From: a virus
Lineage: Duplodnaviria; Caudoviricetes
Virus record (IMG/VR): IMGVR_UViG_3300031972_001459
Coordinates: 1-62,526 of that record
Length of the DNA stretch: 62,526 nt
Strand: one strand, 5' to 3'
Part shown: one piece after another, positions 1-51,177 of the stretch
Numbering within the stretch: position 1 is the first letter of the stretch
Layout of the letters: each line of letters begins with the position of its first letter
Notes under the pieces: model-generated
Seen by the model: the letters and a program-made list of their open reading frames with translations, nothing else
Database searches by the model: none
Told to the model about the DNA's origin: nothing
Position numbers and translations under genes: made by a program

Positions 1-11
1 TGACTGATGAA

Positions 12-248
12 ATGTGCGAAGTGATCGCCACCGAAAAACAATGGGCTGACAACATTGGCGTTGTCCTCTTCCGCCATAGCGACATGCGTGCCGCTGCTGA
101 TTGGCAATTGGAGCAGGTTATTGAATGGATTAAGGAATGTCCAGACTGTTATGACCTTGATTTTCATTCCGAATCTCGAAGGATGATCGCAGACCTCAAA
201 CAAGCGATGCGCCCACAACAACAACATCAACAACTGGAGAACAACTGA
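12..248 (+). CDS. Phage hypothetical protein, 'MRAAADWQLEQV...AMRPQQQ' family (probably 5'-truncated by the window edge)
   Basis: ORF ending in the QQLENN junction; shares the MRAA.D motif with ORF 9295..9561. Confidence 0.65.
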   Translation: MCEVIATEKQWADNIGVVLFRHSDMRAAADWQLEQVIEWIKECPDCYDLDFHSESRRMIADLKQAMRPQQQHQQLENN

Positions 249-547
249 TGCCTGAAAAAATCACACTTGAGCAAGTGCTTGAACTTGTCAGCTTCATGCA
301 GGCCCACAAAGGTGGCTGGAAGGTTCTGACTGTCCATGGTAATGTCTTTGGTGATGTCCATGGTGATGTCCATGGTGATGTCTTTGGTTATGTCCATGGT
401 GATGTCCATGGTACTGTCAGGGGTACTATCAATGGCCACAGGTGGGGGTCCGTTGAGACTCCCCAAGAGAATCTTGAGCGTTTAATCCTGAAGTCTGGAG
501 ATCAAGAACTAATTGAAGCATTTAATCAACTACAGGAGAACAATTAA
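248..547 (+). CDS. Hypothetical protein with VHGD tetrapeptide repeats
   Basis: GGAG RBS and TGATG overlap; 12-bp tandem repeat GTCCATGGTGAT at ~330-415. Confidence 0.75.
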   Translation: MPEKITLEQVLELVSFMQAHKGGWKVLTVHGNVFGDVHGDVHGDVFGYVHGDVHGTVRGTINGHRWGSVETPQENLERLILKSGDQELIEAFNQLQENN

Positions 548-810
548 TGACTGAAACTTGGTATCTTTTGTACGGTGGCGATTCAGTAGACGGACGCGGA
601 CCGGGCGAATACGAAGGCCGAACCTGTAATGTCTTTGCTGCGGCCAAGCATTACATAAAAATCACCGATAACCCTTACTCAACAGGCTATGTCAAGGTGA
701 TTACTGACAAAGAAGTCGTTCAGTATTCCAGCATTCTTGGCTATAGCCCTGCTACCTCAGAACTAAAAGAAGCGATTAAACAACAACAACAGGAGAACAA
801 CAATGGTTGA
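547..810 (+). CDS. Hypothetical protein
   Basis: GGAG RBS, TAATG coupling, ends in the QQQQENN junction. Confidence 0.7.
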   Translation: MTETWYLLYGGDSVDGRGPGEYEGRTCNVFAAAKHYIKITDNPYSTGYVKVITDKEVVQYSSILGYSPATSELKEAIKQQQQENNNG

Positions 811-1006
811 CCCACAACACCCGCTCACACCACCGAAAGAGCTAATCAACGCATGGCGAGCCGAAGGCTACCATCAGGATTACTGTGAGGCTGACGACTA
901 TCTTTATCACAAAATTGCCGAATGGGGATGGCAACAACGTAACGCCACTGTTCCTCAAGAACTGCGGGAATCCGCTGATCAAGAGCTGGAGGCGAAGCTA
1001 CGTTAA
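803..1006 (+). CDS. Hypothetical protein (HPLTPP..L family), apparently truncated or frameshifted at the 3' end
   Basis: GGAG RBS; a tail IEDFKETMRPQQQENN continues in another frame to 1056. Confidence 0.6.
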   Translation: MVDPQHPLTPPKELINAWRAEGYHQDYCEADDYLYHKIAEWGWQQRNATVPQELRESADQELEAKLR

Positions 1007-1055
1007 TTGAAGATTTCAAGGAAACAATGCGCCCACAACAACAGGAGAACAACTA

Positions 1056-1241
1056 ATGAAACCCATGATTAATTTCCTCCGAGCATTCGACGAACTAGAC
1101 GAGGGAACCCAGTGCTGCTTTTTCTTTGTATTTATGTTCTGGTCGCTTTTCCTGCCTATTATCATATCCGCAGGTGTGGTCCATTTTAGTGACAAACTGA
1201 TCATCCAGAATCAACCAACCTGTGAAGAGATGGCACAATGA
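1056..1241 (+). CDS. Small putative membrane protein
   Basis: GGAG RBS; hydrophobic stretch FFFVFMFWSLFLPIIISAGVV. Confidence 0.6.
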   Translation: MKPMINFLRAFDELDEGTQCCFFFVFMFWSLFLPIIISAGVVHFSDKLIIQNQPTCEEMAQ

Positions 1242-1269
1242 CAGATAAAGAACAACAGGAGGACAACTA

Positions 1270-1539
1270 ATGACCTGGACTAACTACATTTTCAAACACC
1301 TCATTCCGGCCTGGTTTTATTCGTTTAAATGTAACTTCTATATGTGGAGTGATTTAATGGCCGGTGATTATGAAGGTTACGCTATATTGCCTGGTGATGA
1401 TCCTTACACTGAGTGTTATGAGTGGTTTTGGGCATCTCTCAGTATGGATGAAACCTATCCTAAGGAGTTCTTGGATGAACTCCAAGAGATAGTAGACATG
1501 ATTGATCAAAGCAAAATGACAAGAGAACAGCTCATCTAA
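1270..1539 (+). CDS. Cyanophage-type hypothetical protein
   Basis: GGAGG RBS, TAATG coupling; Trp/Tyr-rich (CYEWFWAS..DETYPKEFL). Confidence 0.7.
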   Translation: MTWTNYIFKHLIPAWFYSFKCNFYMWSDLMAGDYEGYAILPGDDPYTECYEWFWASLSMDETYPKEFLDELQEIVDMIDQSKMTREQLI

Positions 1540-1622
1540 GCAGTCAACCAACTGGAGGACAATTGAAGATTAAAGTTACTCACCTCCAATTGACCACTGT
1601 AGTGTAACCACGCAATCAACTC

Positions 1623-1964
1623 ATGACAATCACACAAACCAAGGCAGAGTTTCTAACAGAATCATTGATCGAAGTTCTTAACAATGACTGGAAAGTCTTG
1701 GCTGTTGAGAATGGACGTAACTTTCATTCTTATCTAACAATGGAAGTTGGTCGTAAGTACATCAAAGTGTGGCAATCAAAATGTTATGATGGTGTTGTCA
1801 GAGATGGTCGTAGTTGTTTTATGTTTGTAGATAAAGAGTCTGGTGCATGTTACAAACCAGCCAGTTATAAGGCACCAGCCAAAGGCATTCGTTTCTATAT
1901 CGATTTTCTGACTGATCACCCTGAAGTTATTGACCAATACGGCTCATTCCTTTATCTTCGTTGA
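1623..1964 (+). CDS. Conserved phage early hypothetical protein (GRKYIKV...FVDK..G..YKPAS.KAPAK)
   Basis: Follows repeat copy 1; motif recalled from T4-like cyanophage early regions. Confidence 0.8.
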   Translation: MTITQTKAEFLTESLIEVLNNDWKVLAVENGRNFHSYLTMEVGRKYIKVWQSKCYDGVVRDGRSCFMFVDKESGACYKPASYKAPAKGIRFYIDFLTDHPEVIDQYGSFLYLR

Positions 1965-2038
1965 TGTTTATGTTCCGCTTCTTTTATTACATTGCCGTCG
2001 GGGCATTCTTTGTAACCATTATCAAACACTTTTCTTAA
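1964..2038 (+). CDS. Putative 24-aa hydrophobic peptide MFMFRFFYYIAVGAFFVTIIKHFS
   Basis: TGATG overlap with the upstream gene; fills the gap; looks like a single TM helix. Confidence 0.4.
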   Translation: MFMFRFFYYIAVGAFFVTIIKHFS

Positions 2039-2043
2039 TTATC

Positions 2044-2247
2044 ATGGCACTTTCCGCAGTCACTGTATCACGTATTGCTGATGCACTCAAAGATGACATT
2101 ATCGAACACATTTACGCAAACGAGAAATATAACGAGGTTATGCGTCATTGTGTTCAAGAAGCATTAGACGCCAAAATGGGTGAGATGGATGAGGATCTAT
2201 ATTTTGACCTTGGTATGTGTTTATTCGAGAGAATTGAACTGAAATAG
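2044..2247 (+). CDS. Hypothetical protein (start re-assigned to MALSAVT)
   Basis: ATG at 2044; stop abuts repeat copy 2. Confidence 0.7.
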   Translation: MALSAVTVSRIADALKDDIIEHIYANEKYNEVMRHCVQEALDAKMGEMDEDLYFDLGMCLFERIELK

Positions 2248-2298
2248 AATTACTCACCTCCAAATGTCCCCTATAGTGTAACCACGCAATCAATTCAA

Positions 2299-2481
2299 AT
2301 GGAGTTTAGGATCATTGTTCCATCCGCTCGATATGAAGATGTAACCACAAATGATTTAGATCAAGCATGGCGTATTTGTTGTGATCTATCTGAAGAGTTT
2401 GGATATGCAGAAGTTAAACGTAATCTTTGTGGCCCTGAACCAATTCTAGGCTCTTTCACTAATGGTAAATCAGACAAATGA
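2299..2481 (+). CDS. Hypothetical protein (CDLSEEFGYAEV motif)
   Basis: Follows repeat copy 2. Confidence 0.7.
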   Translation: MEFRIIVPSARYEDVTTNDLDQAWRICCDLSEEFGYAEVKRNLCGPEPILGSFTNGKSDK

Positions 2482-2585
2482 TCTACAACATTGCATCAGA
2501 CATCAAGACCCACAAGATTGTGTGGATTGATTCAACAACACAGAAGGTAATGACTGCGGTTCAAGTATCAGCATCAACTCGCTAA
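2478..2585 (+). CDS. Small hypothetical protein (35 aa, MIYNIASDIK...)
   Basis: ATGA overlap with the upstream stop; translated manually. Confidence 0.5.
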   Translation: MIYNIASDIKTHKIVWIDSTTQKVMTAVQVSASTR

Positions 2586-2706
2586 TCTATGGGCATTTGT
2601 AATACAATTTCTGTGGTGGTTACAGTATTACAATGTAAGGCCCATATGGCGGACGACAAAGTTACTCACCTCTAAATGACCACTATAGTGTAACCCGCCA
2701 ATCATT

Positions 2707-2868
2707 ATGACACTCACTGAAAGGAATCAACAACAATACGATCTCCGCCAGGAGATGTATCTAGCCCAACAAAAGGCAGAATTCTGTAAAGAACAGATTG
2801 CACGACTAAATATGGAATATCAAGCACAGTTTGAAACTCCTCTGTTTGAAGAAATGTTTGGCGGTTAA
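2707..2868 (+). CDS. Small coiled-coil hypothetical protein (53 aa, ends PLFEEMFGG)
   Basis: ATG 11 nt after repeat copy 3; translated manually. Confidence 0.7.
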   Translation: MTLTERNQQQYDLRQEMYLAQQKAEFCKEQIARLNMEYQAQFETPLFEEMFGG

Positions 2869-2869
2869 T

Positions 2870-3100
2870 ATGAAATTAGTTACTCTATTTCCACTGGTAA
2901 TCCTCCTCTCCTTTCCTGGAGCATTACCAGTTCAGGCATATCCTGAAACTGAACAGATTCTAGACCTAATCGAGAGATTGGGTTCTGTTTGTGATAAAAT
3001 ACCACTAGATGAACCATTCAAATATGACAACTGCGTTGATGAACAATTAGAACAAAAATTGGGACGCAATTTGTTTGAACTAGAATCCACTCCTAACTAA
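2870..3100 (+). CDS. Hypothetical protein with a signal-peptide-like N-terminus
   Basis: MKLVTLFPLVILLSFPGALPVQA; start re-assigned to 2870. Confidence 0.55.
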   Translation: MKLVTLFPLVILLSFPGALPVQAYPETEQILDLIERLGSVCDKIPLDEPFKYDNCVDEQLEQKLGRNLFELESTPN

Positions 3101-3120
3101 ATCAATTCTTCTTTTTTATT

Positions 3121-3330
3121 ATGGCACAAATCACTTACACCTTCCGAGTTCCTTACACTGTACCGACAGAAGCTGGAACTCGTTATATGAATGTCGAAGC
3201 AATGTATAATGATGAGGCAATGAGACTTGTTGAAGGTATGATACCAAACTCAAGTGCAACTTGGCCAACAATTGTAAGAGAACACAACAGTGATAATGAT
3301 AGAAAAGGGTTCTTATCTTGGCTTTTCTAG
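3121..3330 (+). CDS. Hypothetical protein
   Basis: ORF whose stop abuts repeat copy 4. Confidence 0.65.
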   Translation: MAQITYTFRVPYTVPTEAGTRYMNVEAMYNDEAMRLVEGMIPNSSATWPTIVREHNSDNDRKGFLSWLF

Positions 3331-3379
3331 AATTACTCACCTCCAAATGTCCCCTATAGTGTAACCACGCTTTTTGATT

Positions 3380-3688
3380 ATGTTTGTTTCTGAAATGACC
3401 TTCGCCACTATGAACCCTGAATTCAATGGTGCATATCTTGCAGTCGCAGGTGGTGATATGTCAACATCGAAACTATTTGATGGTAAGGCTGAAATGTATG
3501 CTTGGATCAATGACATGATTGAGTATCAGGGCTATCCTTATGTTGAAACAACTGTTCTTGATAACAGTGGTGTTGTAGATGGTAAATTGATCAGTAAAGT
3601 TGCAACATATATGTCATCAGAAGATTGTTATAAAGGTGGCATTATTGAGCCAGTATGTGGTAATTCAATCTACGCAACTTATCAGTGA
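3380..3688 (+). CDS. Hypothetical protein
   Basis: ATG 13 nt after repeat copy 4 (alternative start 3395). Confidence 0.7.
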   Translation: MFVSEMTFATMNPEFNGAYLAVAGGDMSTSKLFDGKAEMYAWINDMIEYQGYPYVETTVLDNSGVVDGKLISKVATYMSSEDCYKGGIIEPVCGNSIYATYQ

Positions 3689-3740
3689 CAAAGTTACTCA
3701 CCTCCAAATGACCCCTATAGTGTAACCACACAATCAACTC

Positions 3741-4025
3741 ATGACTTCAACCTATCAGACCACAATCGAAGATACAACTTACAATGGATGGAGTACCTGG
3801 GAAACTTGGAACGCAAGTCTTTGGATTGGTAATAGTGAGTTTTTGTATAATACTGCCAAGGCATGTGTCAAGTTCTGTACCGTTGATGATACCCCATATG
3901 ATGCATTTGTTCGTTGTATGAATAACAGTGAAAGATTTGCTACAGGTGATGGAGTTAAGTGGAATGATCCTCTAATCAACTATGATGAGATGAATGAAAT
4001 GATGAACGAACTCGCAGGAGATTGA
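3741..4025 (+). CDS. Conserved phage hypothetical protein (YNGW..WETWN..LW family)
   Basis: Follows repeat copy 5; motif recalled from many phages. Confidence 0.75.
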   Translation: MTSTYQTTIEDTTYNGWSTWETWNASLWIGNSEFLYNTAKACVKFCTVDDTPYDAFVRCMNNSERFATGDGVKWNDPLINYDEMNEMMNELAGD

Positions 4026-4082
4026 TTCTACAGAGTTACTCACCTCCAAATGTCCCCTATAGTGTAACCACGTTTCTAAATC

Positions 4083-4340
4083 ATGTCTATCACCATCAAA
4101 TACGATTTTTTCTCTGATCATTCACTTACTGCAGTAGCAGAAGTATGTGAGATTGCAAATGTAACACCACTATCTGTCACATTCAATTCTACAATGCATG
4201 ACAATGTGGCAGTTGAGTTCAAGTCACATAGTGACGCAATCCTTTTCAGTGAGGTATATCTTGGATCAACAGATCCTTCTGATATTCGTGAGTATGTTGG
4301 TTCTGATACTCCTCTTGGAGAGGAAGTATATGGTGGTTAA
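4083..4340 (+). CDS. Hypothetical protein, paralog of 9896..10126
   Basis: Follows repeat copy 6; NVTPLSVT vs NITPLSIT. Confidence 0.7.
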   Translation: MSITIKYDFFSDHSLTAVAEVCEIANVTPLSVTFNSTMHDNVAVEFKSHSDAILFSEVYLGSTDPSDIREYVGSDTPLGEEVYGG

Positions 4341-4392
4341 TAAAGTTAGTAACCTCTAAAGTGTTTCTATAGTATAAGGTTCAGACAAACAA

Positions 4393-4656
4393 ATGACTTA
4401 TTCAAACCTCTCAAAAATCAAACCAAAGTTTCGTACTGAAGGTCAAATTACTGGTAATTGGGGAAAGAGTAAAGTGCGCACCAATGGTAACAGTGAATTA
4501 GGATATAGTACAAAGGAAAGTATCTCCACACCAGTTACAAAGAGTGAATATATTCAGAGAATGTATGAGGTATTAGATACAACGAGTGACCCTAAGATAC
4601 AGAGGTTTGCATATAATGAGATACGGAACTATTTGATACAAACTAATCAGTGGTGA
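4393..4656 (+). CDS. Cyanophage-type hypothetical protein (YSNLSKIKPKFRT.G.ITGN.G)
   Basis: Follows degenerate repeat copy 7. Confidence 0.75.
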   Translation: MTYSNLSKIKPKFRTEGQITGNWGKSKVRTNGNSELGYSTKESISTPVTKSEYIQRMYEVLDTTSDPKIQRFAYNEIRNYLIQTNQW

Positions 4657-4706
4657 CAGAGTTACTCACCTCCAAATGTCCCCTATAGTGTAACCACTGA
4701 ATTATT

Positions 4707-4868
4707 ATGAAAGAATCTAAGTTTCTGATCTACGGTGAACATCATCGTACTAATGGTTGGACAATGAGAGATTGTCTCGCTTACATTGCTTCTAGTAAAG
4801 AGGAAGCAATTGCGACTTGTAATCGAATTCAACCACAATTTGTAATCCAATCTGTTATTGAAGAATGA
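4707..4868 (+). CDS. Small hypothetical protein (53 aa, MKESKFLIYGEH...)
   Basis: ATG 11 nt after repeat copy 8; ATGA overlap with the next ORF. Confidence 0.7.
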   Translation: MKESKFLIYGEHHRTNGWTMRDCLAYIASSKEEAIATCNRIQPQFVIQSVIEE

Positions 4869-5071
4869 ACTACAACAATTTTTGGGATAATGTGTTAAAA
4901 CAAGAGGAATGGAATGATGATCTGAAACGGTGGGAAAATGCTCATCCTGAGTATGAACCATTCAAGGAAGATTCTGATTCACAACGTCAACAAAATCTCT
5001 TAATTAGTCTAACACAGAATTACTCACCTTCAAATGTCTCCTATAGTGTAACCAACCAATCAACATCATGA
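4865..5071 (+). CDS. Hypothetical protein reading through repeat copy 9
   Basis: ATGA overlaps at both ends. Confidence 0.5.
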   Translation: MNYNNFWDNVLKQEEWNDDLKRWENAHPEYEPFKEDSDSQRQQNLLISLTQNYSPSNVSYSVTNQSTS

Positions 5072-5409
5072 GAAAGATCGAAACCCAAATGAACACTGCC
5101 ATTCACAACCGTCAAGATTGGCAGTCAGGTAACACTATGGTGATACATTCTCACTGTAATGTATCAGGTAAGGTATCTCATGTGTTTCTTCACGGCAACA
5201 AGATTGCCGAGGTTGGTAATACTTTCGTGAGACTTATGGATGGCGGTTGGCAAAATGTTACCACTAAATCACGTCTAAATGCCATCCTAAGTGAGCATGG
5301 AGAATCAGGTGATTGTGTGTTTCAGAAAGATTTTCAGTGGTTCGTTCGTATGAACACTGTGGAAGGTTTAACGACCGTTCCTTTCTTTAACTCGATGAGG
5401 CTTGGTTGA
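5068..5409 (+). CDS. Conserved phage hypothetical protein (MRKIE..M / VFLHGN.IA / DGGW...TTKSRLNA family)
   Basis: Follows repeat copy 9; clear paralog of the next gene. Confidence 0.8.
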   Translation: MRKIETQMNTAIHNRQDWQSGNTMVIHSHCNVSGKVSHVFLHGNKIAEVGNTFVRLMDGGWQNVTTKSRLNAILSEHGESGDCVFQKDFQWFVRMNTVEGLTTVPFFNSMRLG

Positions 5410-5502
5410 TATTTGTCCTTTATTGTTTCTATATTATAATCAATGGTATTAAAGTTACTCACCTCCAAATGTCTCCTATAGTGTAACCACACAATCAACA
5501 TC

Positions 5503-5820
5503 ATGAGAAAGATCGAAACCCAAATGTGTTCCGCAGTTCACAACAACGCTAATTGGCAGTCTGCTAATACATCAGTTGTGACTGAAGATTCTACTTCTAA
5601 AGTATATCTTCATGGTAATCACATCGCTACTGTAGGTGATGACTATGTTGAAATCTTTGATGGTGGTTATCGATCAAATACTACTAAATCAAGACTCAAT
5701 GCACTCATCAACGAGTTCTGCGATGCAGTTACTGATGGTATCTTTCAAAAGGATTACACCTGGTATGTAAAAGATAACAACATCACCAAAAAGTTTACTA
5801 ACGGTTATATCTTCTCATGA
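5503..5820 (+). CDS. Paralog of 5068..5409
   Basis: Follows repeat copy 10; identical first 8 codons and the same motifs. Confidence 0.8.
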   Translation: MRKIETQMCSAVHNNANWQSANTSVVTEDSTSKVYLHGNHIATVGDDYVEIFDGGYRSNTTKSRLNALINEFCDAVTDGIFQKDYTWYVKDNNITKKFTNGYIFS

Positions 5821-5913
5821 TTAAGTATATCCTAGGAGCTATAGTTGCTCCTACCATGATACTCACACCATGGTTATTTGTTCTCTATTGTTTCTATCTA
5901 CAACTCACTGAAA

Positions 5914-6258
5914 ATGACAACAACCAAACAGTTTGATAAAGGTGAATTCTACACTATTGAAGCCTTTTACTTTACAGAAGAAGATGGTATCATTTATGGA
6001 GAGGATCGCAATGAAGAGGTTGATACTTATTGGCATATCAAACTTGACATTAACCTGATGGATTATGTGCTAGAACAATGTCAAACCAAACTCACTGAGC
6101 CATCGATTGTTGATGTCCTACCACGTAAATGGGCAGACTTCAATGATAAATATGAACTCGAAGATTGTGGCGATACATGTTATGGTATTGAACGCTATAT
6201 CTGGACAGGTAAGAAGTTAGTTACAGAGGAAGAGTACACTGAACTGGTGACTGTATGA
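5914..6258 (+). CDS. Acidic hypothetical protein
   Basis: ATG at 5914 preferred over the upstream TTG. Confidence 0.65.
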   Translation: MTTTKQFDKGEFYTIEAFYFTEEDGIIYGEDRNEEVDTYWHIKLDINLMDYVLEQCQTKLTEPSIVDVLPRKWADFNDKYELEDCGDTCYGIERYIWTGKKLVTEEEYTELVTV

Positions 6259-6482
6259 ACTACGACATCTATCACCTACGCAATACACGGATGGATGATA
6301 AACTAACCTATCAACTAAGTGGTATCATAGCAGCTTATAAACCCCACTCTGAACCACCCTCAATAGATGAGATGGATACAGATAGGGTTGACAATTCCTA
6401 TGTTTCAATGATAGACTTATGTCAACAGATAGGTGTTGATTACCGTGAAGTTCAGAGACAGAACAGGACAAAAGATAGGTAA
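6255..6482 (+). CDS. Hypothetical protein
   Basis: ATGA overlap with the upstream gene. Confidence 0.5.
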   Translation: MNYDIYHLRNTRMDDKLTYQLSGIIAAYKPHSEPPSIDEMDTDRVDNSYVSMIDLCQQIGVDYREVQRQNRTKDR

Positions 6483-7047
6483 GTTGACTGTTATTCAAAG
6501 AGTGTTATATCCGTCAAAAGATGTATACTGGGAATGTGAATGTGAGTGTGGTAATAGAACAATAGTAAGAGCAAACAAACTCAATGGGAGGACAACAAGT
6601 TGCGGATGTAATCAACATAACCCACAACACCATATAACACACGGTATGCAAAAGACACAAATTTATAAAGTATGGGCAGGGATGATTGCAAGGTGTAAAC
6701 ATAAACAATCTTACATAAGAAAGAATATACAAGTGTGTGAAGAGTGGAAAACATTTACACTTTTTTATCGTGATATGGGTGACATACCAGAGGGAATGAC
6801 GCTAGAGAGAGTTGATAATAGTAAGGGATATATGCCATCAAATGTTATATGGGCTGATAGGGTAATACAAGCAAACAACAGAGAAACTAATGTGTTTGTT
6901 GAATACCAAGGAAAGAGGCAAACTATCATACAGTGGAGTAGGGAGTTAGATATAGAACCGTCAACTATTAGAAGGAGAATTATATCTAACTTACCAACAG
7001 AACTTGTCTTATATCAAGGTGATTTACGGGGTAAGACTAACACATAG
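6445..7047 (+). CDS. Putative HNH-type homing endonuclease
   Basis: G.LTV..W.CECECG..TTSCGC N-terminus and TLERVDNSKGY.PSNV.WA...QANN; GTG start (6433 alternative). Confidence 0.75.
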   Translation: MKFRDRTGQKIGKLTVIQRVLYPSKDVYWECECECGNRTIVRANKLNGRTTSCGCNQHNPQHHITHGMQKTQIYKVWAGMIARCKHKQSYIRKNIQVCEEWKTFTLFYRDMGDIPEGMTLERVDNSKGYMPSNVIWADRVIQANNRETNVFVEYQGKRQTIIQWSRELDIEPSTIRRRIISNLPTELVLYQGDLRGKTNT

Positions 7048-7061
7048 TAGTTGCAGTCCTT

Positions 7062-7889
7062 TTACCCCATTATCATAGAGAGTGGTCTTCTCCCCTTTCT
7101 ACCACACTTTGTTCCTTGTAATTTTGCTGCTTCCTTTGCACTTTCAGATCCAAATCTATGTGGTGTTGATGGTGTAAAATCAGATGGTATTTCACCTCTC
7201 CATAGATACCAACCTTTACATTCAGATTTGTTATTATTAGGGGATTTAATTGATTTGCATATGTTGCCATTACCCTTTCTGTTTCCTTCTATATCTTCGG
7301 CACAATCTGCTTGACTATTCCAACACATAGTATCACCATCTTCACGAATACCATATATCTTACCTCTCGTATTCACTCTCGCTTTCTTGTCAACTAATTC
7401 ATCACCTTTCCAACTCCACCTATATCCACCAGATTGAAATGTAGTTCCTTTTATACAAGCAGTGAGACAAGCTTTGCTTATTCCTAACTCCTTTAATACT
7501 ATTCCCCTACTATCATAATCACGAATATGTTCTCCCTCTAATGTATAACAACTGACAGGTTTAATTCTATCATCATTCAGTCGATATATGTCCCTTGTGC
7601 AACCACTACCTCCAATCGTTGAGTTATATCCATTGTTGTAGGTGTCAAACTTTTTTATCCAATACTTTTCTCTTTCATTAATAATATCTTCATCACAGGT
7701 TTCTATTACATAGAAGGTAAATGCATCTACTCCTTCTTCCCTTATTGCATTACAGATAGTCATATTCTCATAAGGTAATCTAGACCTGTAGATATGTTCT
7801 TTCCATCGATAATGAGGGTCTTTCTTTCTTGTGCAACCAACATACTTTCTGGTAGTTTCTTTATTCTGGATGATGTAGATTGAAGCCAT
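7062..7889 (-). CDS. GIY-YIG homing endonuclease (Seg-like) with NUMOD-type DNA-binding repeats
   Basis: SIYII..KYVG, RWKEH, EREKYWI..GYNSTIGG; TATAAATA upstream on the minus strand. Confidence 0.85.
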   Translation of the reverse strand: MASIYIIQNKETTRKYVGCTRKKDPHYRWKEHIYRSRLPYENMTICNAIREEGVDAFTFYVIETCDEDIINEREKYWIKKFDTYNNGYNSTIGGSGCTRDIYRLNDDRIKPVSCYTLEGEHIRDYDSRGIVLKELGISKACLTACIKGTTFQSGGYRWSWKGDELVDKKARVNTRGKIYGIREDGDTMCWNSQADCAEDIEGNRKGNGNICKSIKSPNNNKSECKGWYLWRGEIPSDFTPSTPHRFGSESAKEAAKLQGTKCGRKGRRPLSMIMG

Positions 7890-7911
7890 GATAATAACAC
7901 TTGGATACATT

Positions 7912-7919
7912 TATTTATA
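7912..7919 (-). promoter_or_regulatory. T4-type late promoter TATAAATA for the GIY-YIG gene
   Basis: Exact gp55 consensus 22 nt upstream of ATG 7889. Confidence 0.7.
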
Positions 7920-7982
7920 TAGTGTAAGTGTTAAAAATCACCCCCCTAAATGACGATATAAATATAATGTTCTGTTGTAGAG

Positions 7983-8047
7983 TTCTCCACAATGGCTGTG
8001 GAATAGTAAGGTAAAATGTGTGAATAAGTGTTGTAATCTGTGGAAAA
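7983..8047. promoter_or_regulatory. Cluster of four DnaA-box-like 9-mers
   Basis: TTCTCCACA (+, 7983), TATTCCACA (-, 7997-8005), TTATTCACA (-, 8019-8027), TTTTCCACA (-, 8039-8047). Confidence 0.55.
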
Positions 8048-8121
8048 GGTGTTAGTAAATGGCTTCAGCAGTAGTGTTATTGACCTTATAAAGGCCAGAG
8101 CTTATTGTTATCTAAGGCCGT

Positions 8122-8150
8122 ATTCTATCAGGCCTTCCCAATAATGTCAA
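8122..8150 (-). promoter_or_regulatory. Sigma70-type promoter, leftward
   Basis: TTGACA-N17-TAGAAT on the minus strand. Confidence 0.65.
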
Positions 8151-8248
8151 CCCCCTCCCCCAAAATACTCTGAGACCCTCAAAGTTCACACCCCACAAAG
8201 TTACTCACCTTCAAATGACCCCTATAGTGTAACCACACAATCTACATC

Positions 8249-8611
8249 ATGATCATCAACGGCTACGAAATCAAACCAGGTGCTGATCTTGAAGGCGCTA
8301 ACCTTAAGGATGCTGTCCTTGAGGGTGCTAACCTTGAGTGGGTCGACCTTCGGGGTGCTAAACTTGAAGGTGCTAACCTTAAGGACGCTGACCTTAGTGG
8401 CGCTGACCTTAGTGGTGCTGACCTTAGTGGTGCTGACCTTAAAGGTACTGACCTTACGGGTGCTTACCTTGAGTGTGCTGACTTAAGGGGTGCTAACCTT
8501 AGTGGTGCTAAACTTGAGGGTGCTGACCTTTGGCATGCCAAACTTGAGCGTGCTGACCTTGTGGGTGCTGACCTTACGGGTGCTAACGTAAAAGGAACTA
8601 TTCTTGCATGA
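8249..8611 (+). CDS. Pentapeptide repeat protein
   Basis: A(D/N)LxG repeats along the whole length; follows repeat copy 11. Confidence 0.95.
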
Positions 8612-8727
8612 ATTCAACACAACAACTGCTACAGACCATTGACACTCTTAAGGCTCATGGTCACTACAAAGTAACAGTGACTGTGCTGCCCTCACAGATT
8701 AAGCGCAAACGCAAATCAGCGCTTTGA
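8608..8727 (+). CDS. Small basic hypothetical protein (39 aa, ends VLPSQIKRKRKSAL)
   Basis: ATGA overlap; translated manually. Confidence 0.5.
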   Translation: MNSTQQLLQTIDTLKAHGHYKVTVTVLPSQIKRKRKSAL

Positions 8728-8832
8728 TTCACATGCTCACTCTATTTTTATGTGTTACATATACGCACTAAAAAATAGAGTAAAGGCCTATCTCTCTAAA
8801 AACCTTTTGTATACTATTGTCTGCTGATGTGT

Positions 8833-9026
8833 CTCTCCTATGTGTTACTTACTGGTTGTGCTTAGTTGATACTGACTCTTGACCCCGTAGGAGAGTTCAG
8901 TTGTAATAACTAAAGCGCCGATAAGTGAACTCGTGGAACACATAACAGTATTATTTAGTATTAGCGCTAACTAACAGTCCGTAATGACTCTAAACTATCA
9001 CTAACTCACACACCACTAAGTAACAC
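8833..9026 (+). ncRNA. Candidate structured RNA / 5' leader
   Basis: GTGTTACTTA (8842) / TAAGTAACAC (9017) close a ~30-bp imperfect stem; several internal alternative helices; no ORF. Confidence 0.45.
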
Positions 9027-9033
9027 TTTTATT

Positions 9034-9183
9034 ATGACCAAATCTGTAATGATCTCACTGCTCCGTAAGGGTAACACTGGTTCACAGATTCTTGAAATTC
9101 TTGAGAGTATCTCCGAAGGCGCTAATGAACAACAAGTAGCACAAGTCGCTAATGAGCCAACACTTATGGAATTGGAGTTCTGA
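9034..9183 (+). CDS. Small cyanophage-type hypothetical protein (MTKSVMISLLRKGNTGSQILEIL, 49 aa)
   Basis: Translated manually; motif recalled from cyanomyophages. Confidence 0.7.
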   Translation: MTKSVMISLLRKGNTGSQILEILESISEGANEQQVAQVANEPTLMELEF

Positions 9184-9294
9184 TTACTAACTAAAGAAGT
9201 TCTCTAGAGGGCCATCATCAACTGGGCCCTAATGTCAACCCCCTTATAATACCTCACCTCCAAATGACCACTATAGTGTAACCCGCCAATCATT

Positions 9295-9561
9295 ATGACT
9301 CACCCACTAACTGATAAACTTTGTGATCAAATCGTATCCTCAACCCCTCCATTGCCTCGCGACCAACAGGACCGAATCCTCAGTTATGACGGCCGGATCC
9401 TCGATGGCATGTTTGAGGAATTTTTTGAAGAACAGAAGCATCAAATGCGTGCCGCTTATGACCTAGGCTGCGCTGAAGGTCGTGATGATATTTTGAGTAG
9501 AGTAACTGAATTGTTGATGAACTTTGTGAAGCAATGCGACCAAACTAACACCCCCTTATAA
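9295..9561 (+). CDS. Hypothetical protein (MTHPLTD...MRAAYD family)
   Basis: Follows repeat copy 12; related to ORFs 12..248 and 803..1006. Confidence 0.7.
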   Translation: MTHPLTDKLCDQIVSSTPPLPRDQQDRILSYDGRILDGMFEEFFEEQKHQMRAAYDLGCAEGRDDILSRVTELLMNFVKQCDQTNTPL

Positions 9562-9610
9562 TACCTCACCTCCAATTGTCCTCTCTAGTGTAACACCAAC
9601 CACACCACAC

Positions 9611-9841
9611 ATGTTATTCAAAAGAACACCGATTGCAGGGTCTTATAACACTATGACTGCTCTAGTATTTCATGAGTGTGATAATGACAGAAAGCTTAGT
9701 TATGACCGAGCTCGTAATGTTTCAATTGGATTTAACTTAGAGCGCTCTTTTGTTTTATCACATCAACCGCAAGAACGTGTTGATGCATGTGAACTATTAG
9801 AGTGGATTGATTGTCAAATACATAAGAAGATTTACGGTTGA
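9611..9841 (+). CDS. Hypothetical protein
   Basis: Follows repeat copy 13. Confidence 0.65.
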   Translation: MLFKRTPIAGSYNTMTALVFHECDNDRKLSYDRARNVSIGFNLERSFVLSHQPQERVDACELLEWIDCQIHKKIYG

Positions 9842-9895
9842 CAGAGTTACTCACCTCCAATTGTCTCCTATAGTGTAACCACACAATCAACTCTT

Positions 9896-10126
9896 ATGAA
9901 CAACACTTTCACTGATACATTCGATTGGTTGAATGAGGGTAATGTCACAGTATTTGACTACCTAAATGATATCAACATCACTCCACTAAGTATCACTGAA
10001 GAGGAAGGAAATAACTTCCCAGGATATAAGATAACCTTTCAATCTTTCGATGATATTATGACATTTTGTCGGGGTTATTATGGAGACCATAGTGATGAAG
10101 AAATCAAAGAGATTTATGGTTGGTAA
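9896..10126 (+). CDS. Hypothetical protein, paralog of 4083..4340
   Basis: Follows repeat copy 14. Confidence 0.7.
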   Translation: MNNTFTDTFDWLNEGNVTVFDYLNDINITPLSITEEEGNNFPGYKITFQSFDDIMTFCRGYYGDHSDEEIKEIYGW

Positions 10127-10158
10127 GTAACACATAGTCGTAGACAGAGTGTAACGAT

Positions 10159-10185
10159 AGGGGGACACATTGTCCCTCTTTTTTT
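10159..10185 (+). terminator. Intrinsic terminator closing the early cassette array
   Basis: AGGGGGACA-CAT-TGTCCCTCT hairpin plus T-run. Confidence 0.8.
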
Positions 10186-10196
10186 ATATCGAGGGG

Positions 10197-10225
10197 TTGA
10201 CATATTACAGTCCTTATGTTATAAT
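10197..10225 (+). promoter_or_regulatory. Consensus sigma70 promoter
   Basis: TTGACA-N17-TATAAT with extended -10 TG. Confidence 0.85.
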
Positions 10226-10377
10226 TAGTGAGGAACAGTTAATGTTACGAAACGACAGTATATTGGGGTTTTCGATGTTATCGCCGATGCGGCGTAGCGG
10301 TTGCCCTTAAAGAAAATGCGTGCTCGATAGGCTACAACGACACTCGATCGGCCTTGTTATATTTTGCGAATAAAAAA

Positions 10378-10770
10378 ATGTCAGCTGAAAAATTATATCC
10401 CACAGAGTTTCTTGGTTATTATGTCACTAAAACCGGCCGTGTATTTCGAGATGGTGTAAAAAAATCCGAGGAAAAATTTATGGAGATAAAACCATTTCTC
10501 CGAGGTGGTGCCGGAGTATCTAATAAGCAATATCCCTCTGTAAATATCTCGATAAAGAACTCCGAGGGTAAGACATTATATCAGAGGAAGGAGTATGTGC
10601 ATAGGATGGTCGCTGAGGCCCTGGTAGATAACCCTCACAGGTATACAGAGGTAGATCACATAGATAGAGACAAGCTCAATAATTGTGTAGACAATCTGAG
10701 GTGGTGTGATAGGAATACCAATCTCAGAGATAAACCTAGAGACATTAACGGGAGGTATTGTAAGGTATGA
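10378..10770 (+). CDS. HNH endonuclease (NUMOD4/HNH_3-like)
   Basis: VHRMVAEA..NP...EVDHIDRDKLNN.VDNLRW. Confidence 0.85.
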   Translation: MSAEKLYPTEFLGYYVTKTGRVFRDGVKKSEEKFMEIKPFLRGGAGVSNKQYPSVNISIKNSEGKTLYQRKEYVHRMVAEALVDNPHRYTEVDHIDRDKLNNCVDNLRWCDRNTNLRDKPRDINGRYCKV

Positions 10771-10961
10771 GTAGTTCAGAAGTTTATCACATTTATCTAA
10801 AGGATAGTTGTATACTTCCGTGTTTAACGAAGGAGAAATTTACAACTAGTTGGGAGTGTCTCAATTTGATGGTAGGGTTGATGAAGACAGATTACGTGGT
10901 GGAAGACCTGTCGTATGAAGTAGTAAGACCACTACAATCAAATGAGGAACAATCCTATTGA
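10767..10961 (+). CDS. Conserved cyanophage hypothetical protein
   Basis: YHIYLKD.C...MVGLMKTDY..DLSYE; ATGA overlap. Confidence 0.75.
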   Translation: MSSSEVYHIYLKDSCILPCLTKEKFTTSWECLNLMVGLMKTDYVVEDLSYEVVRPLQSNEEQSY

Positions 10962-10986
10962 CAAGTTCTAAATATCGAAGTATAAT
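10958..10986 (+). promoter_or_regulatory. Consensus sigma70 promoter
   Basis: TTGACA-N17-TATAAT upstream of 11016. Confidence 0.85.
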
Positions 10987-11015
10987 GAAAGTTGAAATGG
11001 AGTGATTTCTAACTC

Positions 11016-11798
11016 ATGGCTAAAGGATTTACAGTCAAGGCATCAACACCAAAGAAGAAAGAAGAAGGGCCTGCACCGTGGGACTATGATGCAATCAAAG
11101 AAAGAATGAGAGGAAAGGCAATTGTATTTTGTCTACCTGGAAGGGGATGTAGTTATGCATTCATGAAGAACTTTGTACAGTTATGTTTTGATCTTGTACA
11201 AAACCAGATGAGTATTCAGATTAGTCAGGATTACTCGTCTATGGTGAATTTCGCACGATGTAAGTGTCTCGGCGCCAATGTATTGAGAGGGCCTGACCAA
11301 ATTCCATGGGATGGTAAGTTACAGTATGATTATCAGTTATGGATTGACTCTGATATTATTTTTAATACTGAGAAGTTCTGGCAATTATGTGATGTGGCAT
11401 TAGATGCTGATGGAACGGAGCGTCCTATCAGCGCCGGGTGGTATTCGACTGAAGACGGTCGGACAACCTCTGTAGCACACTGGTTGGAAGAAGATGACTT
11501 CCGCAATAATGGTGGAGTAATGAATCATGAGATGGTAGATGGTATTAGTAAGCGTAAGAAGCCTTTTACTGTTGACTATACTGGTTTTGGATGGGTCATG
11601 ATTCAGAAGGGTGTCTTTGAGAATGAGGGTATGAAGTATCCATGGTTTGCTCCTAAGATGCAAGTCTTTGAAAGTGGTGCTGTTCAAGATATGTGTGGAG
11701 AGGATGTTTCGTTCTGTCTTGATGCAATTGAATCAGGATATGAGATTTGGTGTGATCCACGTATTCGTGTTGGTCATGAGAAAACCCGAGTTATCTAA
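11016..11798 (+). CDS. Glycosyltransferase-like (GT-A fold) protein
   Basis: LWIDSDI (DxD), TGFGWVMI, GEDVSFC, VGHEK motifs. Confidence 0.75.
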   Translation: MAKGFTVKASTPKKKEEGPAPWDYDAIKERMRGKAIVFCLPGRGCSYAFMKNFVQLCFDLVQNQMSIQISQDYSSMVNFARCKCLGANVLRGPDQIPWDGKLQYDYQLWIDSDIIFNTEKFWQLCDVALDADGTERPISAGWYSTEDGRTTSVAHWLEEDDFRNNGGVMNHEMVDGISKRKKPFTVDYTGFGWVMIQKGVFENEGMKYPWFAPKMQVFESGAVQDMCGEDVSFCLDAIESGYEIWCDPRIRVGHEKTRVI

Positions 11799-11804
11799 AC
11801 ACTA

Positions 11805-11960
11805 ATGGCAAATCAATTTAACGTTGATAGATCTGTAGAATTTGCTTCAAAGATGACACTTATCACTGAAACCAATAGTGATAAGTATTTGGAGCAATAT
11901 CGACAGAGTTTAAAGAACCGAGAACAATTAGAATCACTGTACAATCAAGAGAGTAATTAA
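11805..11960 (+). CDS. Small hypothetical protein (51 aa)
   Basis: Translated manually; fills the gap. Confidence 0.6.
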   Translation: MANQFNVDRSVEFASKMTLITETNSDKYLEQYRQSLKNREQLESLYNQESN

Positions 11961-11963
11961 ATT

Positions 11964-12113
11964 ATGGCAAAACTTAGAAAGTCCCTATTGGGACAAACAA
12001 TGATTGAATCTCAACCAAAGAAGACACGACAAGGTTGTGGTGCACATACCAAGTACGCTGCAAGTAGTCGTAATAACAAAAGGAAACGTTATCGTGGTCA
12101 AGGACGAGGATAG
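11964..12113 (+). CDS. Small basic cyanophage protein (PKKTRQG...RKRYRGQGR)
   Basis: Translated manually, 49 aa; motif recalled from cyanomyophages. Confidence 0.75.
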   Translation: MAKLRKSLLGQTMIESQPKKTRQGCGAHTKYAASSRNNKRKRYRGQGRG

Positions 12114-29776: not shown

Positions 29777-32700
29777 ATGCCACAGGAAACTAATCTAAAC
29801 GTCGCTCCTTATTTTGACGACTTTGATCCTAAACAAAATTATTATAAGATTCTTTTTAAACCTGGCTATCCAGTTCAGGCTAGAGAACTAACTGGTCTGC
29901 AGTCAATTCTTCAGAATCAAGTTGAAGATATGGGTAACCATTTCTTCAAAGAAGGTGCTAAGGTTATTCCTGGTGACTTGACTTATGTCAAAAACTTTTA
30001 TGGAATTCAGATTGAGCCCGAGTTTCTTGGTATACCTGTAGGTATATATCTAGAACAACTGGTTGGGACGATTATCACTGGACAATCGTCGAATGTAACT
30101 GCACGTGTTGTAACTTATATTACGGATGACGAATCGGATAGAGGAACTTATACACTATACGTTAACTATGAGAACTCATCTTCTGAAGAAGATGTAAGTA
30201 CTTTTATAAGTGGTGAAGTTTTAACCACGAGTACAAATATTAATTATGCATCAACTTTCATTGTATCTGGTGAAGGATTTTGTTCCACAATTCCTCAAAA
30301 CGCTCCTGTCATTGGTTCGTCTTTCAATCTTTCGCAAGGAATTTATTTCTTGAGAGGTTATTTTGTTGATGTTGCAACTCAGACTCTAATTCTTGACCAG
30401 TATAGTAATACTCCATCTTACAGAGTTGGTCTTGATATTATTGAAGAGATTATTTCTTCTGATGTTGACCCATCGTTGAATGATAATGCACAAGGATTTA
30501 ATAATTATACGGCACCAGGTGCAGATAGACTTAAGATAACCCCAGTATTAGCTAAAAAACCTCTCGACAATTTTGATGAAAGTAACTTTGTTCAACTTTC
30601 AGAAGTTAGTAATGGTATTCTGAGAGTAATCAATAGAAATACTGAATACAACTTTATAGGTGACGAGTTCGCAAGAAGAACTTTTGACGAATCTGGTCAT
30701 TATTATGTGAAAGAATTTGTTACTACTGTAAAAAACAGTCTGAACAACGAAGAAGGAAACAGAGGAATATACAATCCTGGACAAACCACTCAGTCTGGAA
30801 ATACCCCCGACGATAATATCGGAGTCTATAAGATTTCTCCGGGTAAAGCATATGTCAGGGGTTACGAAGTAGAAACTATAGTACCCTCATTAATTGACTT
30901 TGTAAAACCAAGAGCAACTAAGCAATTAAAAAATCAAGGTATTAATTTTGGTTTTGGTCCGACCATAGCACTCAACAGAGTCTATGGATCTCCATCTATT
31001 GGTATCAATACTACAAATACTTTGAGTCTTAGAAGTCTAAGAGTTGGTTCAAATCAAGAAACTGCACCAGGTAAAGAAATTGGTATTGCAAGAATCTACG
31101 ACTTTGCACTTGAGTCTGGTTCTTATGATACAAACTTCCCAAACCTAAATGTTTGGGACCTGTCTCTATTTGATGTTCAAACATATACAGACATTACTGT
31201 TAACGAACCAGTAACACTTAACACCTCCGCATATATTAAAGGAGAATCAAGTGGTGCAACAGGTTTCCTTAAGTATTCTGTAAGTGCAGGAACTGCAATC
31301 ACTGCATATAGTGTTGAGGGTGATTTCTTCAAAGGTGAGAGACTCCTATTCAATGGAACACTTGATGATGCAAGATTCGTTACTGAGTCAACTAATTTCT
31401 CACTCTCAGATACTAAGTCAGTATTTGGTATTGTAGGAACTGGCAACACATTTACTGCAGATATTATTCAAACTCCGGTTTATGATATTGGTAACGCAAC
31501 TTGTTCACCTCAGATTGCAAATTCTTCAAGAATTTCAATTCCAGTAGATCCCGGTTTCTCTTTCGTTGGTATTGTCACTGTCGGTAACCTTGTAAGGTTC
31601 TCTAGAACTAATCTTGATACTGCAACATTTGCAAGAGTAACAGGAGTTGGTAGAACCAATATTACAGTTAGTGGTGTAACAACAGTTACGGGTATCTGTG
31701 ATGGTGGTCTTCCTTCAGGAACTGAAACAGTTTCAAATGTACAAATAATCAGTACCAGAGCTCAACGTAATACTGGTTCTGGTAATATTACTGATAATGA
31801 ATCACTATACAGTGCATTCCCAAAAACTAATGTTGCATCTGTAGATCTGATTGATTCTGAGATTGTTATTAGAAGACAGTATAATACAAATATTACGACT
31901 AACTCTACTCCTGTAATTAATGCGGGAGATAATGAGTCATTCTTACCTTTCGATGAGGAAAGATATACTCTAATCAGATCAAATGGTCAGACTGAAGTAC
32001 TTACTGAAGATAGGTTTGTATTTACCAATTCTTTCAAGTCTGTTCAAATTACTGGTCTAGGTGCTGATGATGTTAACACCAAACTCATAACTACGATTCA
32101 GAAGAATAACGTCACATCTAAAACTAAACTGAATTCTGTTTCTAATAGTATTATTATTGACAAGTCAAGTTCATCTGCTTCTGGTATTGGTTCTACAACT
32201 CTACAAGATGGACTAGTTTCTGGAAATTACCCCTTTGGTACAAGAGTACAAGACGAAGTTATTTGTCTGAATACTCCTGATGTAACTAAAATTTATGGTG
32301 TATTCCAATCTGACGATGTAGGAGAACCTACTGCACCATATATGACACTATCTCAGATGGATGGTGTTAGTGGGACAACTAACGATTTGATTGTTGGTGA
32401 GACACTCTCTGGTCAAACTAGTGGTGCCAAGGCAATATACATTGAGAAGTTTACAGATACTAAAGTATATTTCATCTACTTAAATAGTTCGACTTTCCAA
32501 AACGGTGAAATTGTATCTGGAAGTCTATCATCAACTAATGGTATTGTCAATAGTGCAAAACTCGGTTCTAAAAATATCACCAGAGATTTCAAGTTCTCCA
32601 ATGGACAGAAAGGTGGATATTACGACTATTCAAGAATTATTAGAAAAGGTTCTGCAGGAATCCCATCCAGACAACTGAAAGTTTATTATCAGACTGCAAA

Positions 32701-37441: not shown

Positions 37442-37442
37442 T

Positions 37443-37685: not shown

Positions 37686-37708
37686 TCAATATAGAAGTTC
37701 TTATATAA

Positions 37709-38581: not shown

Positions 38582-38587
38582 TACATT

Positions 38588-40057: not shown

Positions 40058-40084
40058 TAAATAGAAGTATACGTCTTCAAAGTA

Positions 40085-51149: not shown

Positions 51150-51177
51150 ATAAACTTTAAAGTAATCATTAATCAAC

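Follow-up and report, generated by a model that had tools for sequence, protein, structure and literature searches.

A repeated promoter-like element borders small-gene cassettes in a lineage of T4-like cyanomyophages and may be a hairpin-less relative of PeSL units

Cassettes headed by PeSL units (early promoter plus stem-loop) are known from the T4-type phages RB49/phi1, T4/PST and KVP40/nt-1 (PMC2839356; PMC4122927). By definition, such a unit comprises a sigma-70-like early promoter, whose upstream, A/T-rich portion holds the stop codon of the preceding gene, a variously placed stem-loop, often composed of G and C runs, and, at the 3' end, a Shine-Dalgarno site and the next start codon (PMC2839356). 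The units stand ahead of ORFans in hyperplastic regions, and insertions or deletions (indels) distinguishing close relatives leave one chimeric unit; their promoter and terminator activity as well as mini-circles have been shown experimentally (PMC2839356). Cyanophages are not mentioned in the 2014 PeSL paper (PMC4122927), and the S-PM2 paper (2015) reports a few stem-loops and judges PeSL-mediated acquisition unlikely in that phage (PMC4503421). Here, we describe a 35-bp element recurring 14 times, ahead of small genes, in the cyanophage contig IMGVR_UViG_3300031972_001459 of IMG/VR (62,526 nucleotides (nt), analyzed at its full length and referred to below as the window), and compare it with PeSL units and other known systems.

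The 62.5-kb fragment constitutes the entire viral contig, is estimated to be 29% complete, and has a G+C content of 37.6%. It is related to the Synechococcus T4-like cyanomyophages S-B05, RN05-S, RB11-B, and S-B43 (Kyanoviridae, host Synechococcus MW02), with which its small-gene region shares short pieces of 96–99% identity. In one lineage of these T4-like phages, this hyperplastic region of small genes has the repeat as its boundary module. Judging by sequence comparison, it is moderately probable that the repeat represents a hairpin-less, lineage-specific relative of PeSL, providing a promoter for each cassette and, at the same time, dispersed homology; each of the two roles taken alone seems more likely than their combination.

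All 14 copies reported in the initial annotation of this DNA were recovered at their positions, all on the + strand. The 35-mer was found at 10 sites of the window with at most three mismatches vs. none in 100 shuffles, and its core, CTATAGTGTAAC, at 13 sites with at most one mismatch vs. 0.39 expected; a degenerate 30-mer applied to the whole contig yielded 13 forward, 0 reverse, and 0 control matches. A weight matrix trained on the 13 strong window copies gave these copies scores of 42.7–57.1 and the copy at 4345 a score of 13.5, with all reverse-strand scores below 8. Rather than being decayed, the 4345 copy represents a spacer subtype typical of the cultured phage SynMITS9220M01. The copies are as follows:

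Copy 1, 1575..1609, + strand: AATTGACCAC spacer subtype; ATG 1623 (DUF7717 gene) lies 13 nt downstream
Copy 2, 2249..2283, + strand: precedes gene 2299-2481; joint of the relocated cassette in contig L024 and of an apparent deletion in a Logan contig
Copy 3, 2661..2695, + strand: precedes gene 2707-2868
Copy 4, 3332..3366, + strand: precedes gene 3380-3688; 43 nt identical to copy 2
Copy 5, 3693..3727, + strand: precedes gene 3741-4025 (DUF7249)
Copy 6, 4035..4069, + strand: exact consensus; precedes gene 4083-4340
Copy 7, 4345..4379, + strand: divergent, of the SynMITS9220M01 spacer subtype (CTCTAAAGTGT..CTATAGTATAAG); precedes gene 4393-4656
Copy 8, 4661..4695, + strand: precedes gene 4707-4868, the cassette that L024 has at copy 2
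Copy 9, 5019..5053, + strand: within the 3' end of open reading frame (ORF) 4865-5071; precedes Kyano_Gp96 gene 5068-5409
Copy 10, 5454..5488, + strand: precedes the second Kyano_Gp96 paralogue, 5503-5820
Copy 11, 8200..8234, + strand: first + strand signal past the reverse-strand GIY-YIG gene; precedes pentapeptide-repeat gene 8249-8611
Copy 12, 9249..9283, + strand: starts with ATACC; precedes gene 9295-9561; left parent of the hybrid element in contig L036
Copy 13, 9561..9595, + strand: CTCTAGT replaces CTATAGT; precedes gene 9611-9841
Copy 14, 9846..9880, + strand: precedes gene 9896-10126; right parent of the L036 hybrid element

A flanked alignment of the window copies gives the unit consensus aaA-GTTACTCACCTCCAAATGTCCCCTATAGTGTAACC-ACaCAATCAAc-ATG, with conservation spanning from about 3 nt before the 35-mer through the start codon; the upstream stop is often found at the beginning of this span (TAA-A, TAG-A, TGA-CAGA). 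The unit is arranged as follows: upstream stop, A-rich bases, the box TTACTCACCT (about -34 to -25), 12 bp, TATAGT, a leader of 9–16 nt, and ATG. The box (element positions 2–11), an AA, and C.CTATAGT.TAA are near-invariant among the 232 unique copies collected from the window and from related DNA. The initial claim of conservation over the whole element holds, hence, for the box and TATAGT and fails for positions 12–23, which are lineage-specific.

The position of the element relative to the adjacent genes was described correctly: in the 12 window copies tabulated it ends 11–15 nt upstream of the next ATG, and for 6 of the 12 the upstream stop comes 1–4 nt ahead of it, that of copy 9561 falling 1 nt inside the element; for the remaining tabulated copies this stop is 35, 44, 65, or 1152 nt away, copy 5019 residing inside ORF 4865-5071. 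Among 240 unique copies (the window plus 45 loci), a + strand gene starts 5–25 nt (mostly 9–16 nt) past the element in 184 cases, and an upstream stop lies within -3 to +10 nt of the element in 150; none of the 45 loci mixes copies of opposite orientations. The leader between the element and ATG is C/A-rich, with no Shine-Dalgarno site seen, including the GGAG type in the window leaders, as had been noted before. In SynMITS9220M01 (L046), the annotated start codons at 6903, 7836, 8574, and 10296 abut TATAGT, and in at least two of these genes an in-frame ATG located 15 nt downstream fits better, one of them matching the start of the window homologue, MTLTERNQ; the SynMITS9220M01 genes as deposited probably begin too far upstream.

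In its location, orientation, and distance from the small genes behind it, the element conforms to a promoter. Its -10 hexamer, TATAGT, matches 5 of 6 consensus positions, and the -35 hexamer GTTACT at a 17-bp spacer matches 3 of 6. The latter was initially regarded as a poor -35, which is true in comparison with TTGACA; but GTTAC ends 18 nt before TATAGT, i.e., at -31, and is preceded by A-rich bases, as in T4 early promoters, which feature a -35 GTTTAC at -36 to -31, an A-rich UP region, and TATAAT (PMC1524935). If transcription began about 7 nt past TATAGT, the leaders would measure about 10–16 nt and lack a Shine-Dalgarno site. No stem-loop was found in the element (five folds, with minimum free energies between -2.1 and -8.4 kcal/mol and z-scores between +0.72 and -0.85), and window 1-12000 had no family match in Rfam. 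A metatranscriptome run (X19, contigs only) covered 18 of 30 bins of the same segment; neither starts nor strand nor transcription can be read from it, and it was not used.

The motif search suggested by the initial annotation found the element family widely across cyanomyophage genomes and viromes, wider than was thought at that time. An exact degenerate search retrieved 41 IMG/VR stretches, and the pattern TTACTCACCY-N12-TATAGT at least 117, many of them with 2–10 co-oriented copies; the control pattern with N13 retrieved 23 stretches with one copy each, so the N12 spacing is strict. The complete genomes of S-B05, S-B43, RN05-S, and RB11-B harbor 14, 8, 13, and 12 copies, respectively, in one or two clusters, and a fifth cultured phage possessing the element, SynMITS9220M01, about 12. 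Neither the whole element nor its 3' half was detected in Syn9 and S-PM2 at up to three mismatches. The S-B05 record contains copies at 156039 and 156967 (+), about 115 kb from the main array at 31684-40367 (-); the copies detected in RN05-S and RB11-B are grouped in a single cluster on one strand. The split clusters of S-B05 hint at a large rearrangement with a possible breakpoint beside the element.

Spacer positions 12–23 differ between the lineages and are uniform within them. Thus, at positions 16–19, contig L018 has TTGA (11 of 11 copies) and S-B05 has A.GT (12 of 12), the window being mixed; the SynMITS9220M01 subtype is CTAAAGTGTCCC. These lineage-specific spacer subtypes suggest concerted evolution of the copies.

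A sister element was found in S-SM2, a representative of a third genus, in the syntenic helicase-to-purM region. It has the 3' half in common with the window element (CTAAAGCGTCCCTATAGTGTAAGC) and bears the G-rich AAAGGGGGGTCGC in the position of the box (full element, AAAGGGGGGTCGCCTAAAGCGTCCCTATAGTGTAAGC); the string GGGGGGTCG[CT] occurs in 11 copies in S-SM2, all on the + strand, and in 0 copies in four other genomes. Together with the following GCGTCCC, this box can fold into a hairpin (-11 to -15 kcal/mol), which is not better than in G-rich shuffles (z from -0.4 to -1.3). In S-PM2, homologues of the window genes are preceded by G5-loop-C5 hairpins with CCCCTATAAT immediately behind the hairpin. 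Since the sisters carry such hairpins, the GTCCCC before TATAGT in the window looks like a surviving 3' hairpin arm. The window type would be a hairpin-less derivative with a T4-early-like -35 box replacing the 5' arm, if the change proceeded in this direction. Overall, G/C hairpins located directly before CCC(C)TATA(G/A)T in S-SM2 and S-PM2 tie the family to the PeSL layout.

The predicted differences in cargo order between close relatives were also encountered: cassettes are added, lost, and reordered, with junctions within the repeat. In BLAST comparisons of the window with all loci, alignment ends pile up at the element borders; this pile-up alone is not telling, since conserved genes flanked by a conserved repeat would give the same picture. 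Hence the junctions were analyzed in near-identical pairs (at least 93% identity), which showed 41 non-redundant discontinuities, comprising 13 indels and 28 replacements. Four of the 13 indels are clean, with both ends in elements and one element left, the overlap of the flanking alignments (34–44 nt) being the element:

Window/L036: 563 nt, two cassettes
Window/L024: cassette of gene 4707 at copy 2, both joints in elements
L015/L028: 1189 nt
L018/L028: 2261 nt

The element at the L036 junction is a hybrid: its left flank and its interior are those of window copy 12, and its leader is that of copy 14. In three other indels, a single end falls at an element. In the linkage check, the element interior tracked neither of the adjoining genes in cases with a differing other flank, and the position of the crossover within the element is not indicated. 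The slot after gene 9034 was found in the following states:

Window: [12-paralogue] [9611] [9896]
L020: [f145] [9611] [9896]
L029: [9611] [9896]
L021: [9611], with 9896 absent
L036, L022, L014: [9896]

These nested states and the differing orders of genes 3741, 4083, and 4393 come from contigs whose names give at least five metagenome numbers. The downstream neighbor was kept in 653 of 1658 pairs with the element at both junctions vs. 1982 of 3665 pairs with the element at neither, and the per-family means of neighbor retention were 0.49 (35 families with the element) vs. 0.65 (96 element-less families; Mann-Whitney p = 0.03), a modest effect obtained with redundant contigs included in the counts.

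Two further kinds of joints were seen in Logan contigs, assembled with a word of 31 letters. In one contig (runs X5 and X6, which gave identical figures and are probably one data set), position 2244 is joined to 3328 through 43 shared letters with 0 mismatches, resembling a deletion at the repeat; as the repeat exceeds the assembler word, the joint is weak and may be false. Joints leading backwards (8604 to 1259, 8270 to 1570, and 1627 to 1) are compatible with circles and with other gene orders alike. Separately, window 4707-5054 is 97% identical to S-B05 (L001 15930-16277), the neighboring homologous genes being only about 66–72% identical. The match stops exactly at the end of element copy 9, and the 4707-5054 stretch suggests a recent transfer of one cassette.

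In the favored explanation, the host RNA polymerase with the primary sigma factor would start about 6–8 nt past TATAGT at every copy soon after infection and thereby give a separate start to every cassette, made up of one to several small genes. The near-identity of 35–50 bp repeated over about 8 kb would, judging by comparison only, serve as dispersed homology. Crossovers between the copies would delete, insert, or move cassettes, leaving one element, sometimes a hybrid, and repeated exchange would keep the copies within a lineage alike. The machinery would be the general homologous recombination of the phage (UvsX-type) or copy-choice, since no site-specific recombinase was found: tyrosine recombinase (PF00589) was detected in 0 of 3 records (the window, S-B05, and SynMITS9220M01) and in 14 of 14 control genomes, and serine recombinase (PF00239) in 0 of the same 3 records, with matches in the control genomes. 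The "early" timing and the "host-takeover" role of the cargo, both put forward at the outset, are inferred only.

A number of observations weigh against this explanation. A simple sigma-70 scan, with 31 sites listed, includes none of the 14 element copies; at strand-switch genes the element is present in 3 of 5 unique cases, too few to use, and the promoter function is predicted from sequence. Sigma-70 contacts do not account for the invariant CACCT at -29 to -25, and the favored explanation covers neither this invariance nor the swap of the whole box in S-SM2. Because CACCT is unexplained and S-SM2 swaps the whole box, the latter may not be a -35 at all. The box TTACTCACCT could instead be the site of a phage-lineage-specific activator or sigma-appropriation factor, giving a T4-middle-like layout and defining a temporal class of genes; though unlikely, this is the best placed of the competing explanations. 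It would fit the near-invariance of the box beside a spacer split into lineage subtypes, the strict spacing between the box and -10, and the S-SM2 elements keeping the 3' half under a wholly different 5' box (absent, as mentioned, from four other genomes); perfect sigma-70 promoters beside the array indicate that canonical promoters are also in use by the phage, and early/middle control in cyanomyoviruses has been called unresolved (PMC2984593). At the same time, the first genes expressed after infection need the host polymerase unless the factor is injected, and the hairpin formed by the S-SM2 box would, as a PeSL-type terminator, explain the box without any factor. MotA and AsiA domains (PF09114, PF09010) were found in 0 of 4 records each (the window, S-B05, SynMITS9220M01, and S-SM2), with no control genome matched either, so their absence is not proven. 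A T7-like RNA polymerase was also considered, as CACTATAG presumably resembles T7/SP6 promoters, and the idea was dropped: PF00940 was detected in neither S-B05 nor S-B43 (0 of 2, without a positive control). The 260-aa gene behind the 10958 promoter was rejected as a candidate factor: it is also present in S-SM2 with its other box and is hence not box-specific. The screen for a lineage-specific factor started from 13 SynMITS9220M01 ORFs common to S-B05 and missing from S-SM2; in the 10 ORFs scanned, no DNA-binding Pfam domain was recognized, three having Pfam matches (DUF7483 + Laminin_G_3, SET, and DUF7243) and seven having none. The narrower proposal, in which the box (-34 to -25, kept at exactly 12 bp from TATAGT across hundreds of copies) is the operator of a lineage-specific functional analogue of MotA/AsiA, ranks lower in probability than the general one. 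If true, one element would time a whole class of accessory genes and, at the same time, be a portable junction admitting captured genes. The DNA of S-B43 has been reported to contain 5-carboxymethylcytosine (PMC12783734), and cytosine modification within the C-rich element might influence the binding of proteins.

The recombination part of the favored explanation meets its own difficulties. In 5 of the 13 indels neither end is in an element, and 19 of the 28 replacements touch no element, the other 9 touching one at one end; many of the 19 correspond to divergent stretches that do not differ in length or to tail-fibre genes located beyond the arrays. All four clean events come from metagenome assemblies, L024 and L036 sharing the metagenome number, and an indel of 289 nt between two cultured phages, RN05-S and RB11-B, flagged as clean by the script, joins in fact at leader/ATG microhomology. 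The indels and replacements away from elements and the joint between the cultured phages favor an alternative in which the element would be a promoter or gene-boundary signal with no mechanistic role in rearrangement, only boundary junctions surviving selection and the turnover being driven by homing endonucleases and illegitimate joining; GIY-YIG and HNH-like genes are variably present in or beside the array. Among the 331 unique gaps between array genes that measure at least 40 nt, 160 hold an element, so the survival of boundary junctions would by itself place many breakpoints at elements. However, elements with their margins make up only 8% of the array bases, neighbor conservation is lower across the junctions with the element than across those without it, and the copies are homogenized within lineages. 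In the four clean events, both flanking alignments traverse the same 34–44 nt, and one junction element is a hybrid, i.e., the product expected from a crossover between copies and not from end-joining. This explanation is doubtful, below either form of the factor-dependent promoter. By far the least probable is that the element is no promoter, being an intercistronic RNA signal: a processing site, a translation-initiation region lacking a Shine-Dalgarno site, or a mimic of the anti-Shine-Dalgarno sequence, UCACCUCC, contained in the box and presumably identical to the 3' end of 16S rRNA. The array is one long co-directional gene run in which read-through is possible, and conservation continues through the leader to ATG. 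Still, there is no stable or conserved fold nor an Rfam match, the CC of the mimic varies among copies, and S-SM2 lacks the mimic altogether; the part most widely shared across phage genera is the TATAGT region with its fixed spacing, and the element restarts + strand genes past the reverse-strand gene at 8200 and at the start of the S-B05 array. Taken together, a promoter for each cassette combined with dispersed homology remains the explanation that we favor.

The array and its surroundings include several other features:

10159..10185, + strand: intrinsic-terminator-like hairpin of 9 pairs (10159-10179) followed by a T-run; end of the array
10197..10225, + strand: perfect TTGACA-17-TATAAT promoter past the array, ahead of the HNH_3-like gene 10378-10770
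10958..10986, + strand: second perfect sigma-70 consensus promoter, ahead of the conserved 260-aa gene 11016-11798
7062..7910, - strand: free-standing GIY-YIG homing-endonuclease-like gene inserted in the array and lacking in the relative L036

The terminator closing the array and the two perfect promoters, each matching 12 of 12 consensus positions, agree with the initial annotation. The GIY-YIG gene has its own sigma-70-like promoter (8150-8122, reverse strand, 11 of 12 consensus positions). Together with ORF 6433-7047, which has no Pfam family, it interrupts the array, and both are missing from L036, a 97%-identical contig. The cargo of the array consists mostly of ORFans without a Pfam family and includes also DUF7717, DUF7249, two Kyano_Gp96 genes, and one pentapeptide-repeat gene. 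The tandem Kyano_Gp96 paralogues (5068-5409 and 5503-5820) have an element copy each, and both start with MRKIETQM; at the corresponding junction, a single copy is present in L036. Five ORFs of the pentapeptide-repeat family stand in a row in L018, elsewhere in its array. Gene 12-248 is a paralogue of gene 9295-9561, the former belonging to a block of the Shine-Dalgarno type and the latter standing behind element copy 12; their common family occupies other slots in the relatives.

Upstream of the array, a second junction repeat, CAACAGGAGAACAACTAATG, links six genes (window 225-1272, plus about 1546-1565); 5 copies were found at up to three mismatches vs. 0.02 expected. It contains a GGAG Shine-Dalgarno site and encodes a common C-terminal tail, ...QQENN*; the spacer 1007-1055 looks like a remnant of a gene end of the CAACAGGAGAACAACTAATG type. 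The 260-aa protein without a Pfam family is encoded between the array and purM in the window (10958-11798), S-SM2 (59228-59992), and SynMITS9220M01 (50670-51434), with a consensus-like sigma-70 promoter upstream in all three; it is absent from Syn9 and S-PM2.

A literature text search for the motif strings gave, among the matches listed, none in a phage context (supplements were outside its scope), and a search for PeSL together with cyanophage returned no description of the element. A promoter logo for it could have been published, e.g., in the Syn9 transcriptome work, though Syn9 lacks the element. As early/middle gene control in T4-like cyanophages is considered open (PMC2984593), the element provides a sharply defined, testable signal present in 8–14 copies in each of four complete genomes of MW02 phages, in at least 117 viral contigs, and in cultured phages. 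With it, modular shuffling of the PeSL type, described so far for enterobacterial and vibrio phages, would also cover marine cyanophages, which are abundant. Marking the sites of ORFan swaps, it helps in reading microdiversity in marine viromes; in addition, repeats of 35–50 bp can break or mis-join short-read assemblies of such phages.

Among the known systems, integrons are defined by the IntI integrase, attC sites that fold, and promoterless cassettes behind a common Pc. The window resembles them in possessing an array of small, variable, co-directional cassettes split by a repeated site; unlike them, it has no integrase, no attC-type hairpin, and a promoter-like element for each cassette in place of Pc. 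As every cassette has its own element, there is no shared promoter driving promoterless cassettes, and with neither a tyrosine nor a serine recombinase found in the window and two complete element-bearing genomes, the initial description of the system as integron-like is not supported. In the halovirus HF2, repeated intergenic elements have been shown to be promoters (PMC8707807); the likeness ends at the presence of such elements in a virus genome, since HF2 is an archaeal virus whose sequence and transcription machinery are unrelated.

The T4 middle promoter consists of a MotA box, 11–13 bp, and TAtaAT (PMC1524935). The window element has the same architecture, i.e., a box of about 10 bp centered near -30 at a fixed distance of 12 bp from a sigma-70-type -10, but the sequence of its box is unrelated to the MotA box; MotA and AsiA were not found in the searches above (no positive control), and cyanomyoviruses have been described as lacking Alt, ModA, ModB, MotA, and AsiA (PMC2984593). 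With the T4 early promoter, the element has in common TTAC at -34 to -31, A-rich bases upstream, the -10 TATAGT, and the location ahead of small early-region genes, whereas it differs by G for T at -35 and by the extra invariant CACCT.

The closest likeness is to PeSL. The window unit often begins with the upstream stop in an A-rich stretch, contains a putative early-type promoter, and extends to the start codon of the following gene. Its copies cluster ahead of ORFans in a hyperplastic region, and in the four clean events, all seen in metagenome contigs, the cassette indels are bounded by the unit and leave one unit behind, which is a hybrid in L036. In contrast to PeSL, the window copies have neither a stem-loop nor a Shine-Dalgarno site, their -35 is weak in comparison with the E. 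coli consensus (the hosts here being cyanobacteria), and they are far more uniform (35–50 nt near-identical), with a lineage-specific invariant box. Thus, the element would work like a PeSL, with which it shares location, stop, and indels, and is a variant because it lacks the stem-loop and the Shine-Dalgarno site. The sisters in S-SM2 and S-PM2 resemble the window element in the 3' half or in the CCC(C)TATA(G/A)T core, occupy the same place in the syntenic region of small genes between helicase and purM, and stand ahead of homologous genes, Kyano_Gp96 among them; unlike it, they carry a G/C hairpin where the window has TTACTCACCT. With this hairpin directly upstream of -10 they show the PeSL layout, so the initial claim of a system distinct from PeSLs is not supported, and the sisters appear closer to the PeSL definition than the window element itself.

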